Part shown: positions 6,868 to 50,330 of the stretch, in pieces
Layout: every line of letters starts with the position of its first letter
Numbering within the stretch: the first letter of the stretch is position 1
IMG/VR virus record: IMGVR_UViG_3300043424_000638
Span: 1-54,950 of that record
Reading direction: 5' to 3' (one strand)
Origin: a virus
Lineage: Duplodnaviria > Caudoviricetes
DNA length: 54,950 nucleotides
Notes under the pieces: model-generated
What the model was told of the DNA's origin: nothing
Seen by the model: the letters and a program-made list of their open reading frames with translations, nothing else
Database searches by the model: none
Translations under genes and position numbers: made by a program

Positions 6868-7322
6868 TGGTGGAGGTGTCGGCTTACGATAGCCGAGTCC
6901 AATGAATTTTCATACTCTAACTCTTCACATGCTTGAGTACATTTAACATTTTAGCTACCTTACGGTAACGGAGACAATAGGTTGTCAGGTTGCACTAACC
7001 GAGTTTTATGTCTACCTATATGCGTGATTAAAGACCGCATATCACCTATGACTAATTTTACCACACTAGTCACTTCGTGCCCGAACCTCTGTCGTTCAAA
7101 GTAGATTTAGAGGATCCTCTACTAGGCTCTTAGGCTACTAGAGCGTAGTCTTCAACGCCAGCGAGGAACTCGTCAGCATTGTTGAAGATGTACTCAGCTT
7201 CAGCTAAAAGATCAGAAGTATTGTCTTCTGCGTTTAGTTTTTAATCGATTTTTAAAGAGGCCATCGATTAACCTCTGCATGCATTAAAGAATTACAACTC
7301 AATGTCGAATCCTTTCACCCCC
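6868..7322 (-). ncRNA. ssrA: tmRNA, 455 nt; tag ORF 7231-7130 = AEDNTSDLLAEAEYIFNNADEFLAGVEDYALVA*
   Basis: 5' GGGGGUGAAAGGAUUCGAC; 3' CACCUCC-A-CCA; G3.U70 Ala determinant; pk1 (AGAGG/CCUCU with UUAAUCGAU/AUCGAUUAA); UAAAC|GCA resume site; tag ends YALVA. Confidence 0.95.
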
Positions 7323-10545: not shown

Positions 10546-11556
10546 TTAATCCTTATAATTTCGATTGATCAATTTGAATCCCAACGGTCTACGTGATTCA
10601 AAAGAACGAGGGTAGCTCTTTGGTCTTACCACAATCCCTTCTGCATCAAGTCCACTAGAATATTTTTGCTTGTCTGCTAGTTCTTGAAGTTTGCCTAGAG
10701 GATTGGTATAAAGTTTTAATGTAGAAGAGACCTCATAATGACCTAAAAGAGGAACCACCCCACAAGAAAGTTTATTATCACAAAAGTCTTTCATGGTGTC
10801 ATAGTCCATATATTTTTCGTTTTCTTTAATTTGGAAAACAAAAATACGAACATCATTTAATTTCAGACGATTCTGTTGGATTCCGTTACCCACTAATTCT
10901 CCTTGTATAATTCCAGACCATTCAGAGGGAATTTGGAGTTTTCGAGCAGCTTTCCAGAATGTAGAATTTTCTGTTTCTTTTTTAGAAAGATTTCTTGAAC
11001 ACACTTTTTTCAATTCTCCATTTTCTACAACTAAAGTTATACTCGAACCGTCTAGTTTTTGAGTGATAGTGATAAAGGGTTCAATATTTAAAACTTTTTC
11101 GACAAGATCTGGATCATTTAAACCATTGTCTTCGTCCGTTTTAGAAATCAAATGACTTGGAAAATCTCCTTCATTTTCTCCAGAAAGATTTGCTGGAAGT
11201 TCTTTAATATATTTTTGAATACCCAAATCTTCCGTAAGATCCTTTCCAAGCTCGAAGTCCCGCAAGAAAAGAGGAAATTCGCCAATAGGCACAACTAGAC
11301 CAGAACTATACTCTCCACGAAGTTTTATATTTTTAAGTCGAATAGGTTTATCGGGATTTTTTTGATCCACTAAAAATTCAGACCATTGACAACGAGGAAC
11401 AATGGTATCAATAGTAATAAAAACTACTTTATCCCCTTCTTTATGAATACCTTTTTTAACTACAGTTTGCCATCCTAAAACTTCTGCGATCTCCAAAGAA
11501 TCCGCATTAGGGTGAACTCTTATATTTTTGATAACTTCTATAGATGCTAATTTCAT
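10546..11556 (-). CDS. RNA ligase, DRB0094/Rnl2-like family with N-terminal OB-type domain
   Basis: HPNADSLE..V.GWQ N-domain; motif I KLDGSS, IQGEL, FVFQI, EGIVVR, FKLIN. Confidence 0.9.
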   Translation of the reverse strand: MKLASIEVIKNIRVHPNADSLEIAEVLGWQTVVKKGIHKEGDKVVFITIDTIVPRCQWSEFLVDQKNPDKPIRLKNIKLRGEYSSGLVVPIGEFPLFLRDFELGKDLTEDLGIQKYIKELPANLSGENEGDFPSHLISKTDEDNGLNDPDLVEKVLNIEPFITITQKLDGSSITLVVENGELKKVCSRNLSKKETENSTFWKAARKLQIPSEWSGIIQGELVGNGIQQNRLKLNDVRIFVFQIKENEKYMDYDTMKDFCDNKLSCGVVPLLGHYEVSSTLKLYTNPLGKLQELADKQKYSSGLDAEGIVVRPKSYPRSFESRRPLGFKLINRNYKD

Positions 11557-14873: not shown

Positions 14874-15139
14874 TTTTTAAACCTAAAATAGACAAAGAGC
14901 AAAAAAAGAGTCATGGCTAGTCCTATGCCGTAATTTAGGAGAAGCCAGAGTACAAAAGTATTGGATAGAAATAGATAAAACAAACCAGAAATATATCCAA
15001 TCATCGGCATTATAATAAAAAAGATAGAAAGATCTTTAGAAGATCGAGTCTTAAAGATTTTAAAAATTTGAGGGACATAACAAGTTACAAAACATCCCGC
15101 CATCAAGATTCCGAAAAATTCTTTAAGATAATAAGTCAT
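14870..15139 (-). CDS. PQ-loop / SemiSWEET-like 3-TM transporter
   Basis: YVPQIFKIFKTRSSKDLS motif, three TM helices, conserved late Asn; start moved to 15139 because the longer ORF overlaps a tRNA. Confidence 0.8.
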   Translation of the reverse strand: MTYYLKEFFGILMAGCFVTCYVPQIFKIFKTRSSKDLSIFFIIMPMIGYISGLFYLFLSNTFVLWLLLNYGIGLAMTLFLLFVYFRFKN

Positions 15140-15154
15140 GATTTTAAAAAGTGG

Positions 15155-15233
15155 TGGTACACCCGGTGCGACTTGAACGCACATTGATCCAGTTACTCGG
15201 CTACGCTTTAGAAGAGCGTTGAGATACGGGTGT
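15155..15233 (-). tRNA. Non-canonical tRNA-Arg(UCU): no D-arm at the normal position, D-loop-like sequence in the variable region
   Basis: ACACCCG/CGGGUGU-A-CCA; ACGCU-CUUCUAA-AGCGU; GUGCG-UUCAAGU-CGCAC; only UAUCUCA between acceptor and anticodon arm. Confidence 0.85.
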
Positions 15234-15974
15234 ATATAAATTGCATTGTTCTAAAGATTCTATAATAATAAGGTTGGGTAACATTTTTTTCAACACTATT
15301 AATTTATTTTTTTGTGCTTTAATAGCTGTAGGATTTTTAGGATCTAAATACAAATCAAAGTCCGGCAGATAAAAGTCTGGGAAGTAGTGGTGTTTTATTC
15401 CTTGTTCGTCGTTCCATTGTATTGGTTCTGGTCGAATCCATTTAACATTTAGTTCATCAAGTCTTTGAGCAAGGGCTAATTCCCAAGACGAATCTAAAAG
15501 TACGCCTTTGTACATTACAGTTCCCCTTTTAAGTCTTCTATGTTTTGATATTAATGCTTTTTGTCTTATAATTTCTTTTGCCTTTTTTGTATGAGTCTTC
15601 CCTAAAAATGTTTGATGATTAACGTGATTATAGCATCCTCTTTTCCAGGCTTCTTTAATTCCTTGTTTTGCTTTTTCTCTTGCCTCTGGTGTTAAAATTT
15701 GAGGTAAAAAATCTTTATTATTTAAAATACGCTTTATACGTTCTGCTGCACTTTTTTTGTAGTATTCAGTTTTTGGATTCAAATCACACCACCTTATATG
15801 ATTTGCTTTTTTTGTGGGTGTAAAATTTTCTAAAGATCTTTTGCAATAAGTGCAATTATTTAAGTGTGGTTGTGGTGGTTTGTAATCACCATTACAAACC
15901 GACGTATGTTTTTCGTAATTTTTAGCTCTTGTGGTAAACCAGAAATGACATTTTGTACATTGGAGTTTTTTCAT
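15201..15974 (-). mobile_element. Free-standing homing-endonuclease-like gene (Zn fingers, NUMOD3-like, PD-(D/E)XK TnsA-like C-domain)
   Basis: CxxC...H...C fingers, GKTHTKKAKE, SSWE, YFPDFY...LDPKN; last 11 codons lie inside the tRNA-Arg. Confidence 0.8.
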
Positions 15975-16833: not shown

Positions 16834-17592
16834 ATGAGTAAAATGAATTATTTGATGGTCAAAAAGTGTATTATTAATAACAAAAAATATCTTTGTAAAA
16901 AAACAACCGATGACATCAAAAAAGCAATTAATTATAAAGGTTCTGGTATTATAATTAAAAGGCTAAAAAATAAATACGGTAGAGATTGTATTGTGCATGA
17001 ATCGATTCTCTGTGTGATGCCAGTTGAACAAAAAAAAGAATTTAAAGATTTTTGTTTAAAAACGTCATTAAAATTTAATGTGGTTGAAAGTGATGAGTGG
17101 TTAAATCTCGAACATGAAATGGGTGGAGGCGGTTCTACAATTTTTACAAATCATAGTAAAGGCAGAAAAGCGATTTTTAAAGGTAATGATCAAAAATGGG
17201 TTAAATTAGAAGATCTTGAAAGTTACCTAACAGATGGGTGGGTGTTGGGTATAACTCAAAAAACAAGAGAAAAATTGTCAAGAGCATTAAAAGGAATGCC
17301 TGCACACAATAAAGGCAAAAAAATGAAAAAGGATCATGAATATAAAACAAAACCTTGGGTCAAGAAAACAGAAGAAGAAAAATTTATAAACAGGAGCAAC
17401 GGTAGAAAAAAACTTTATTCTGATCCCGAGTATTTGGCAAAATTTAAAGCACCCAGAAAACCATTAATTAAAATAATAAATTCAATAGGAGAAGAATTTT
17501 TAAAATCTCGGGCTGAAATAATTAAAATGGGGTTAACATTGAGATCTTTATTGAAAGGGGGAGAATCAAAAGGGTGGAAAATTGCAAGGTGA
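16834..17592 (+). mobile_element. Seg-like GIY-YIG homing endonuclease with NUMOD DNA-binding repeats
   Basis: YLMVKK...KYLCK...YKGSG...WLNL; YLTDGWVLG and TREKLSRALKG.PAHNKG motifs; opposite strand to neighbours, own GATAAATA motif; stop overlaps tRNA-Ile 3' end. Confidence 0.8.
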
Positions 17593-17673
17593 GGGAATCG
17601 AACCCCCGCTCGGCCCACATCTAGGGCACACAGGTTATAAATCTGTCGGTACTTCCAGTTATACGAACCTTGC
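17583..17673 (-). tRNA. tRNA-Ile(UAU) with 22-nt variable arm; CCA not encoded
   Basis: GCAAGGU/ACCUUGC-A73; GUAU/GUAC D-stem; ACAGA-UUUAUAA-CCUGU; V-arm GCCC/GGGC; GGGGG-UUCGAUU-CCCUC. Confidence 0.85.
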
Positions 17674-17680
17674 ATCAAAA

Positions 17681-25974: not shown

Positions 25975-26060
25975 TGGCTCCTCGTCTTGGACTTGAACCA
26001 AGAGTGCCTTTCGGCTCCCGGTTAACAGCCGGGTGTATTTACCAATTCTACTAACGAGGA
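25975..26060 (-). tRNA. tRNA-Asn(GUU) with class-II-like long variable arm
   Basis: UCCUCGU/ACGAGGA-G-CCA; CCCGG-CUGUUAA-CCGGG; V region A-GCC-GAAA-GGC-ACU; CUUGG-UUCAAGU-CCAAG. Confidence 0.92.
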
Positions 26061-49202: not shown

Positions 49203-49253
49203 TAAAATTTTTGTTCTGGCTTTTTAAAAATTATTCGAGATAATTTTTCTTTG

Positions 49254-50330
49254 ATGAAAGTATCATTAGAAAATCAAGTAGGATTCAAATCTTATCCTCA
49301 TAAGTTTTGTGGATTAGATTCTCATTTGATTATTCCAGAAATAGATGCCGAGTGGAATCAAGACAACCTACACCTTCGTTCTTTGATTGTGGATTTAGAA
49401 GGAAAGGTTTTAAGTTCCGGTTGGCCTAAATTCTTTAACTATCTCGAGAAACCCAATTGTTATCCTGATCCTTTAAATTATTCGGATTGGAGAATCAAAC
49501 AAAAATTAGACGGTTCTTTAGTCATTTGCGACTTTGTTAATGAGGAATTTAATATGAGAACTAGAGGTACTGCTTCTCATATGTTTCAAGCTAATTGGAA
49601 AGACTTTGAATTGCTTCCGAAAAAATATCCTAAAGTCGTAGAATTTTTAAAGAACAATAATTTTAGTTTATTGTTTGAAATTGTTACTCCTAATAATGTT
49701 ATTGTAATTCGACCGAAGGAAATAGAATTTTATTTTCTAGGAGTCATAAACAAAGACACATTAAAAGTTTTATCTGAAGAAGAGTCTTTAGAGGTTTGGA
49801 GAAAAATTGGACAACCTCCTACTCCTACTCAATACCAATTTGATAGTATTAAGGATTTAGTAAAACTATCCGAACATATTAAAAATTGGAAAGGAGAGGA
49901 AGGTATTGTTGTTTCTTATAACAATGGTCAAAATAGAATTAAAATGAAATCCGATTGGTATTGTTGGGTTCATGCTATTAAGTCTCAATTGAATTCAGAA
50001 AATAATTTGATAGAATACTATGTAAATTCTCATATGCCTTCTTCTGATGAATTCTTCAAAAAGATAGAGACAGAATTTGATTTTGAAATTGCTACTCAAT
50101 TAAAAGAACAAATAGAAAAAATTTCTGAGACAGGAGAAAAAGTAAAACATTCTATTCAGGTCATGAAAGATTTTATTAACGACATTAGACGTTTTGAAAC
50201 TCGTAAACAAAAAGCAGAATGTATTCTGAGATCTTTTAATGATCGTGCTTCTTTTGTTTTTTCTTTACTTGACGGAAAAGAATTAACTTCTGTACAATTA
50301 ATCAAACTCATGCAACTCCATAATACCTAA
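49254..50330 (+). CDS. RNA ligase, T4 Rnl1-like
   Basis: RSL, WPKFFN, KLDGSL, LFE, EEGIVV, KMKSDWY. Confidence 0.88.
   Translation: MKVSLENQVGFKSYPHKFCGLDSHLIIPEIDAEWNQDNLHLRSLIVDLEGKVLSSGWPKFFNYLEKPNCYPDPLNYSDWRIKQKLDGSLVICDFVNEEFNMRTRGTASHMFQANWKDFELLPKKYPKVVEFLKNNNFSLLFEIVTPNNVIVIRPKEIEFYFLGVINKDTLKVLSEEESLEVWRKIGQPPTPTQYQFDSIKDLVKLSEHIKNWKGEEGIVVSYNNGQNRIKMKSDWYCWVHAIKSQLNSENNLIEYYVNSHMPSSDEFFKKIETEFDFEIATQLKEQIEKISETGEKVKHSIQVMKDFINDIRRFETRKQKAECILRSFNDRASFVFSLLDGKELTSVQLIKLMQLHNT

Follow-up and report, generated by a model that had tools for sequence, protein, structure and literature searches.

Here, we describe a phage-encoded tRNA-Arg(UCU) whose gene carries the block equivalent to positions 10–21 after the anticodon arm, and which probably is a functional tRNA of an undescribed structural class. 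Because the two putative strands of its D stem lie on either side of the anticodon arm, the 3-bp D-like helix that they form would close around that arm. Sequence comparison argues for this layout through covariation in the helix, conservation of the D-loop motif and of A20, covariation between positions 15 and 48, and the breadth of the family. The architecture recurs in 93/121 and 114/120 of the listed matches of two search patterns and is far beyond chance.

The gene and its locus

The window, i.e., the entire stretch of DNA that was analyzed, is a 54,950-base IMG/VR virus record with an estimated completeness of ~25% and is AT-rich (29–40% G+C). It encodes T4-like functions, namely two RNA ligases, an exonuclease and tail fibres, and the closest cultured relatives of its virion protein are from T4-like cyanophages. 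From 15233 to 15155 on the minus strand, the gene reads ACACCCG UA UCUC A ACGCU CUUCUAA AGCGU AGCC GAGU AACUGGAUCAAU, and then continues with GUGCG UUCAAGU CGCAC CGGGUGU A CCA. Its acceptor and anticodon stems are separated by 7 nt (UAUCUCA) and its anticodon and T stems by 20 nt. The assigned parts, all on the minus strand, are as follows.

15155–15233, minus strand: rewired tRNA-Arg(UCU) gene, 79 nt including the encoded CCA (15155–15157) and discriminator A (15158)
15227–15233, minus strand: 5′ strand of the acceptor stem, ACACCCG, pairing with 15159–15165 (7/7 pairs in the window)
15225–15226, minus strand: equivalents of U8 and A9 (U in 76/76 and A in 76/76 listed homologues, both left free by the search pattern)
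15221–15224, minus strand: UCUC, assigned from covariation as the D-stem 3′ strand (positions 22–25), directly after U8 and A9
15221–15223 with 15196–15198, minus strand: putative pairing of CUC with GAG, based on covariation
15220, minus strand: single nucleotide between the D-like helix and the anticodon stem, equivalent of position 26
15203–15219, minus strand: anticodon arm ACGCU / CUUCUAA / AGCGU, 5/5 pairs, anticodon UCU at 15210–15212
15199–15202, minus strand: linker AGCC, which replaces positions 44–47 and joins the anticodon stem to the relocated D-stem strand
15196–15198, minus strand: GAG, assigned as the D-stem 5′ strand (positions 10–12), moved 3′ of the anticodon arm and covarying with 15221–15223
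15188–15195, minus strand: UAACUGGA, conserved motif assigned as the D-loop equivalent (U13, A14, A15, C16, U17, G18, G19, A20)
15183–15187, minus strand: linker UCAAU, the last U of which (15183) is the position 48 equivalent and putative Levitt partner of A15
15166–15182, minus strand: T arm GUGCG / UUCAAGU / CGCAC, 5/5 pairs in the window
15159–15165, minus strand: 3′ strand of the acceptor stem, CGGGUGU, partner of 15227–15233
15201–15974, minus strand: endonuclease-like open reading frame of 257 aa, given as context and not part of the RNA; its 3′-terminal 33 nt are shared with the 5′ part of the tRNA gene

The window copy has the features of a canonical tRNA at its acceptor end (7/7 pairs, A76 and CCA), in its anticodon arm (5-bp stem and 7-nt loop with U33 and a purine at 37) and in its T arm (5-bp stem and UUCRANY loop). 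A D-arm hairpin between positions 9 and 26 is absent from this copy, in which A9 is separated from the anticodon stem by 5 nt (UCUCA). Reading of the minus strand thus confirms the initial annotation in describing perfect acceptor, anticodon and T arms and CCA, with only UAUCUCA at the site of the D-arm. The overlapping open reading frame matched PHROG families labelled 'endonuclease' (E = 8.4e-12) and 'Holliday junction resolvase' (E = 1.1e-7).

The host phage of this gene has many tRNAs and also encodes a tmRNA (window 6868–7322, minus strand, Rfam 103.5 bits), copies of which in relatives have tags ending in ALAA or LLAA. Although tRNAs for Asn and Ile usually belong to class I, in the window tRNA-Asn(GUU) (86 nt, 25975–26060, minus strand) and tRNA-Ile(UAU) (93 nt, 17582–17674, minus strand) have long variable arms. 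Phages related to the window phage carry tRNA-Met of 84–87 nt, and in such relatives ARAGORN called one tRNA whose anticodon has two bases as well as tRNAs of Ser type with ACU or AGA as anticodon (L024:9491-9567; L027:8758-8847; L042:11530-11620), which may be further unusual tRNAs. The two RNA ligase homologues of the window are located at 10546–11556 (minus strand) and 49251–50330 (plus strand) and match PHROG 968 and PHROG 562, the latter labelled 'RNA ligase and tail fiber attachment catalyst'.

Homologues and covariation around the anticodon arm

Neither an exact 31-mer from the rewired tRNA gene (0 matches) nor the flanking PQ-loop protein and endonuclease-like protein had relatives in the viral contigs searched, and a blastn search of cultured phages with the 2.2-kb neighbourhood produced a single hit, which is irrelevant. 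The RNA ligase gene as query, in turn, retrieved 48 related viral loci, one of which (L013) carries an evident homologue whose anticodon stem shows compensatory changes. A first pattern with fixed anticodon loop, UAACUGGA and start of the T loop, and with both strands of the D-like helix left free, matched at least 119 stretches in viral contigs. Applied to the listed stretches, the earlier loci and the window, it gave 121 matches, the window copy included, of which 93 of those listed were tRNA-like as judged by acceptor and T-stem pairing and 76 were distinct (set 1). The interval between acceptor and anticodon stems is exactly 7 nt and starts with UA in all of these (76/76 listed), which leaves exactly one nucleotide for the position 26 equivalent. 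Since UAACUGGA was fixed in the first scan, a second scan of viral contigs was run in which only G7-U8-A9-U-C and the two loops (anticodon and T) were prescribed. It matched at least 120 stretches; 114/120 of those listed were tRNA-like and 97 were distinct (set 2).

Positions of the D-like helix were set by anchors: those of the 5′ interval were numbered from the acceptor stem, and their partners from UAACUGGA. In set 1, the first pair (fourth interval base with the base before the motif) is Watson–Crick in 76/76 listed sequences (CG 55, UA 10, GC 9, AU 2), as is the second (fifth interval base with the next base; GC 31, CG 24, UA 16, AU 5). The third pair, which involves the sixth interval base, is present in 58/76, the remainder being C-A (9) and G-G (9) mismatches in two subgroups. 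Off-register cells at the three pair positions are paired at a fraction of 0.67 or less among the listed set-1 sequences. In the MAFFT alignment of the 76 sequences, 100% of the counted cells of helix 11–13/40–42 are paired and 3/3 pairs show double changes. The surrounding helices behave as expected of a tRNA family: among the listed set-1 homologues, the acceptor stem is paired in 99.2% of cells with compensatory changes in all 7 pairs, the T stem is paired in 98.9% of cells with compensatory changes in all pairs, and all 5 pairs of the anticodon stem show compensatory changes. Taken as a whole, the four-helix structure is 97.3% paired, as compared to at most 44.8% with partners slid by 1–3 columns, and 0/500 shuffles reached as high a value.

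Set 2, in which the second and third pairs were free, has 192/194 Watson–Crick cells at these pairs in 97 listed sequences. Shuffles averaged 81 and never exceeded 111 (0/10000 as high), and shifted registers gave at most 60/194; because the sequences within each set are related, the shuffle controls overstate independence and the shifted registers are the fairer control. The listed sequences comprise 11 helix types, each of which occurs with several different acceptor stems. From this covariation we conclude that the 3-bp D-like helix enclosing the anticodon arm is real, with its length of only 3 bp counted as a point against it. Its position 10 equivalent shows no conserved G in the listed set-1 sequences, unlike in canonical tRNAs. 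The linker from the anticodon stem to the relocated D-stem strand is 3–10 nt long in the family and variable in sequence.

Downstream of this helix strand, the region left free in the second scan contains UA(R)N0-2..GG followed by A in 97/97 listed set-2 sequences, in each case directly preceded by the complement of the three 5′ interval bases (97/97). The most frequent variants among these were UAAUUGGA (40), UAACUGGA (20), UAAUGGA (11) and UAAGUGGA (6), besides others, and the equivalents of A14, G18G19 and A20 were always kept. Position 15 and the base directly preceding the T stem read A:U in 93, G:C in 3 and A:C in 1 of the 97 listed sequences, i.e., the covariation rests on a handful of non-A:U cases with one exception (A:C). 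The penultimate base before the T stem is A in 94/97. These patterns match what an R15-Y48 Levitt pair and an A21-like base would give.

These comparisons bear directly on proposals that had been made from the window sequence. The pairing of CUC with GAG is upheld by the two fully Watson–Crick pairs, each represented by all four pair types in 76/76 listed homologues, and in part of the family by the third pair (58/76). Covariation between the UCUC and GAGU segments, for which a search of phage metagenomes had been suggested, is present in both sets obtained by pattern scans. The D-loop identity of the relocated segment and its conserved GG-A agree with the motif in 97/97 listed set-2 sequences in which it was not fixed, and the proposed A15-U48 Levitt pair gains two further combinations, G:C and U:A, from Ile paralogues in addition to the counts above.

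A covariance model (R1) was built from the 76 set-1 sequences, the window copy included, and holds two of the three D-like pairs because MAFFT misplaces the 3′ base of the third pair where the spacer is 7 nt. The window copy, being one of the source sequences of the model, scores 80.7 bits. Strong R1 matches were obtained in 47/49 whole viral records, those 47 being the records behind the model, and there was no match in the 2/49 records outside the model sources, the loci of which are non-tRNA pattern matches. Among 48 relatives of the window phage, two have an R1 match, one of them a complete 202,880-bp genome. In this copy (L171:1501-1585), a 10-nt segment, UAUAAGGUCU, separates the D-loop-like motif from the T stem and CCA is not encoded; a variable loop of canonical type seems to have been retained as well.

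Distribution, anticodons and visibility of the family

Members of the family are widespread in cultured phages. A blastn search with one member matched 267 cultured-phage records, which by first organism word were assigned to Escherichia (141), Salmonella (53), Klebsiella (40), Streptomyces (8) and others. Nine cultured phages were checked, namely Escherichia phage 121Q, Listeria phage LPML1, Streptomyces phage TunaTartare, Agrobacterium phage Atu_ph04, Stenotrophomonas phage SOVA965, Limnohabitans phage DC31, Klebsiella phage KNP2, phi92 and wV8. The member in KNP2 matched at 100% identity, and those of phi92 and of the Felix O1 relative wV8 scored 74.2 and 70.3 bits with R1, respectively. 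Contigs of bacterial and archaeal genomes gave 119 pattern matches, mostly by chance. Eight of these survived filtering, of which 7 seem genuine; every one of the 7 comes from a metagenome-assembled contig and may be misbinned phage sequence, and in the three cases with long flanking sequence the gene belongs to a tRNA cluster. Of 40 open reading frames directly upstream of family members, 5 have an HNH domain, and a link to homing endonucleases is thus not general to the family. Individual neighbours include an Endonuclease VII upstream of the rewired tRNA in TunaTartare, an HNH gene upstream in SOVA965 and, in another viral contig, a Thg1-like protein (tRNA-His guanylyltransferase, Pfam E = 2.1e-29; L095:704-1462, plus strand) directly upstream of a rewired tRNA-Arg.

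Paralogues with the rewired layout, present as additional copies in some viral records or as matches in cultured phages, have the anticodons Arg CCU (2), Arg ACG (1), Arg UCG (Streptomyces phage TunaTartare) and Ile UAU (2). Known determinants of bacterial tRNA-Arg are A20 as the main one, C35, U/G36 and A/G73, and those of tRNA-Ile include A73, U12-A23 and U20 (PMC9976931). In both Ile copies, A73 is present and the D-like helix contains the equivalent of U12-A23, and U takes the place of A20 in one of them; the two also add, one each, G15:C48 and U15:A48 as two more compensated changes of the Levitt pair. With two sequences, these bases are a pointer, not proof, that synthetases may read the relocated arm as a D-arm.

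Further features are consistent with use of the gene in translation. AGA is the commonest Arg codon in the open reading frames of the window (194/417 Arg codons, 47%), and a canonical-looking tRNA with a CUUCUAA loop is also present in only 3/45 of the gene-carrying records. In listed set 2, CCA is encoded in 58/97 sequences and the discriminator is A or G in 87/97. Judged by these sequence features, the rewired gene is not a redundant pseudogene. Contigs from RNA libraries (two small transcriptomic runs of one study, and wastewater 'RNA' libraries) cover a Felix O1-like copy, contigs being a type of data that cannot show transcription, ends or CCA.

Standard tools largely pass over the window copy. 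ARAGORN called three tRNAs in the window (Ile-UAU, Tyr, Asn), and Rfam gave the same three plus the tmRNA; the rewired tRNA at 15155–15233 was absent from the ARAGORN output, and had no Rfam tRNA match at gathering scores in the window or at E <= 10 on 15000–15400. ARAGORN likewise called no family member in 6/6 other loci that it was given. When RF00005 was run on short stretches of relatives with lax filters, however, 14/20 reached the 29-bit cut-off, with 30.2–41.5 bits, as compared to 38.5–71 bits for canonical tRNAs neighbouring family members. The expectation that such a tRNA is poorly seen by scanners thus holds for ARAGORN, on the window copy and on the 6/6 loci, and for Rfam on the window copy, but not for RF00005 on most of the relatives. 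A sub-threshold Rfam match to Plastid-ycf2 lies on the strand opposite the gene (window 15157–15233, plus strand, 25.2 bits at a cut-off of 65.7), and similar matches (21–28 bits) occur at several family loci, mostly on the strand opposite the rewired tRNAs. This suggests a tRNA-antisense artefact, i.e., that this family model resembles antisense tRNA.

Folding programs recover the canonical helices. The minimum-free-energy fold of the window copy contains the three canonical helices at −23.4 kcal/mol (z = −2.49; 2/200 shuffles as stable), with a small CCG/UGG hairpin in place of the CUC/GAG helix. RNAalifold on the aligned 76 listed set-1 sequences also predicted the three canonical helices and not the 3-bp D-like helix. 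As this helix is short and closes a large loop, we regard its omission as a limitation rather than a contradiction, while still counting it as evidence against the helix.

Among 45 listed of the 267 matching cultured-phage records, 30 have no feature at the gene, 9 have a protein-coding feature only, 3 are unannotated records and 3 carry the label tRNA-Leu, tRNA-Val or tRNA-OTHER; the label tRNA-Arg was found in 0/45. Inventories of phage tRNAs, and arguments on codon usage that build on them, are biased in consequence.

Alternative readings, proposed fold and meaning

It is very unlikely that the gene encodes a D-armless tRNA as in animal mitochondria, in which the 20-nt region would form a class II-like hairpin, CC(G)AG-UAA-CUGG, and UCUC would be a mere connector. 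The initial annotation had named this as the alternative fold. The sequence of the window itself can form the hairpin, single-sequence folding picks a related CCG/UGG stem, and the Asn and Ile tRNAs of the same phage carry long variable arms. Among the listed homologues with the 8-nt motif, however, all four pairs of the hairpin are possible in only 16/76 and two pairs or fewer in 48, and a subgroup with an NGAAA linker has no partner for the GG anywhere. Completeness of the hairpin in so few listed sequences (16/76) also speaks against assignment to class II tRNAs, which have a conserved stem-loop in the variable region. A D-armless model would further leave unexplained the covariation of the segments that flank the anticodon arm and that of positions 15 and 48. 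Mitochondrial D-armless tRNAs, such as metazoan tRNA-Ser(AGY/N) and Ascaris tRNA-Ser(UCU), share the short connector between acceptor and anticodon stems; they are described as flexible and as having lost the D-loop together with its contacts (PMC7609411, PMC4033280). The rewired tRNA, in contrast, keeps a putative relocated D-loop (G18G19, A14 and the Levitt partner) and a canonical T arm, and both the presence of UA(R)..GG-A in 97/97 listed sequences and the 15:48 covariation separate it from that mitochondrial type.

A tRNA-like decoy or regulator, which folds as described and acts outside translation as a sponge for host tRNA nucleases or modification enzymes or as a processing signal of tRNA clusters, is unlikely too. 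The unusual layout could be read as a sign of constraints other than the standard ones of tRNAs, and phage tRNAs have been proposed to counter host tRNA nucleases (PMC10264068). Yet the features required for charging and decoding are conserved in listed set 2 (U33, A37, A20, the discriminator and CCA at the frequencies given above, and a canonical acceptor-T minihelix), all anticodons are for Arg apart from the Ile copies, which carry Ile determinants, and few of the genomes also hold a canonical UCU tRNA (3/45). That the canonical order is restored in the RNA by cutting and religation of the transcript, e.g., by phage RNA ligases, as for the permuted tRNA genes of red algae, is extremely unlikely. 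Although two RNA ligase homologues are encoded in the window, three cuts and three joins inside the folded core would be needed, no conserved bulge-helix-bulge or similar motif was seen in the family, and the RNA-library contigs, which are weak evidence here, show no joint. In the circularly permuted tRNA genes of Cyanidioschyzon merolae, the 3′ half is upstream of the 5′ half and the acceptor strands are internal, while the mature tRNA is canonical after processing; the breakpoint of such a permutation shifts the 5′ and 3′ ends. The rewired gene, unlike these, already has its acceptor strands at both ends and hence does not fall into this type. Archaeal split tRNA genes similarly have a non-canonical order of segments and yield a canonical mature tRNA after processing (PMC4033280). 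An altered order of segments is shared with the permuted and split genes, but the rewired gene keeps canonical ends and changes the internal order, from which the mature RNA should have a new connectivity. We give next to no weight to a decaying pseudogene or a chance resemblance: scanners miss the window copy and an open reading frame overlaps the 5′ part of the gene, but the family is large and diverse, shows compensatory changes in all four helices and is kept in many complete phage genomes.

We therefore return to the functional, rewired tRNA as the preferred reading. Its chain would run from the acceptor stem through U8 and A9, the D-stem 3′ strand (22–25), position 26 and the anticodon arm to a linker of 3–10 nt, and from there through the D-stem 5′ strand (10–12), U13, the D-loop (A14, R15, G18 G19, A20), the conserved A and position 48 to the T arm and back to the acceptor stem. 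The D-like helix would stack on the anticodon stem in the manner of the D stem of the L-shape, and the relocated D-loop would make the usual core contacts, i.e., U8-A14, R15-Y48 and G18G19 with the T loop. A20, C35, U36 and A/G73 would remain available to the ArgRS of the host. On this basis we infer an L-shaped fold, charging with arginine and decoding of AGA. In the canonical fold, the positions joined by the new backbone links (9–22, 43–linker–10 and 21–48) are neighbours, as in the core of yeast tRNA-Phe. Reasoning from this L-shape, the new connections may be sterically feasible.

A single origin of the layout is probable, with duplication and deletion inside a tRNA gene as the route. Duplication of segment 10–47 followed by loss of the outer copies could have given the rewired order in one lineage, which may later have spread among phages inside tRNA clusters and acquired the anticodons CCU, ACG, UCG and UAU via point changes. 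One guess as to why it was retained is escape from host enzymes that read the canonical geometry of D-arm or variable loop; for phage tRNAs in general, it is currently discussed that they evade host nucleases directed at tRNAs (PMC10264068). A wider proposal, which we advance tentatively and consider rather doubtful in its entirety, is that a horizontally spreading lineage (Arg UCU, CCU, ACG and UCG; Ile UAU) builds the canonical L-core via a different backbone path, is charged, decodes rare AGA, AGG and AUA codons and is kept because it is invisible to host tRNA nucleases or to enzymes that read D-arm or variable loop. It would then be the first natural topological isomer of the cloverleaf.

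Compared with canonical class I tRNA-Arg(UCU), as found in T4-like phage tRNA clusters and modelled by RF00005, the rewired tRNA shares the 7-bp acceptor stem, the 5-bp anticodon and T stems and the UUCRANY T loop, and also the equivalents of U8, A14, R15:Y48 and G18G19, the Arg elements A20, C35, U36 and A/G73, and the occurrence in phage tRNA clusters. It differs in that the putative D-stem 5′ strand and D-loop are located 3′ of the anticodon arm, that a hairpin D-arm is lacking, and that the variable loop is replaced by the linker into the D-stem strand. To our knowledge, the arm order of the cloverleaf is regarded as fixed in cytoplasmic tRNAs. Allo-tRNAs with 8/4 or 9/3 acceptor-T branches are likewise natural altered tRNAs from metagenomes and phages that had been missed or mislabelled; they change helix lengths within the usual arm order (PMC5389517), whereas the rewired tRNA changes the order of strands. 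The full-text literature searched, in which most subscription journals are not covered, held no description of D-arm strands flanking the anticodon arm, the available parts of two reviews of unusual tRNAs did not include the layout (PMC7609411, PMC4033280), and Rfam 15 has no separate family for it. No description having been found in these sources, we regard the rewired tRNA as a new structural variant of tRNA, of which a prior description is possible.

As laboratory strains of E. coli and Salmonella are hosts of phi92, Felix O1-like phages and 121Q, direct tests of the class are possible, including of protection from tRNA-cleaving defence. If the proposed fold is true, the L-shape rather than the connectivity of the backbone would be what synthetases, EF-Tu and the ribosome require, and the rewired tRNAs of these phages would offer a new scaffold for engineered or orthogonal tRNAs.
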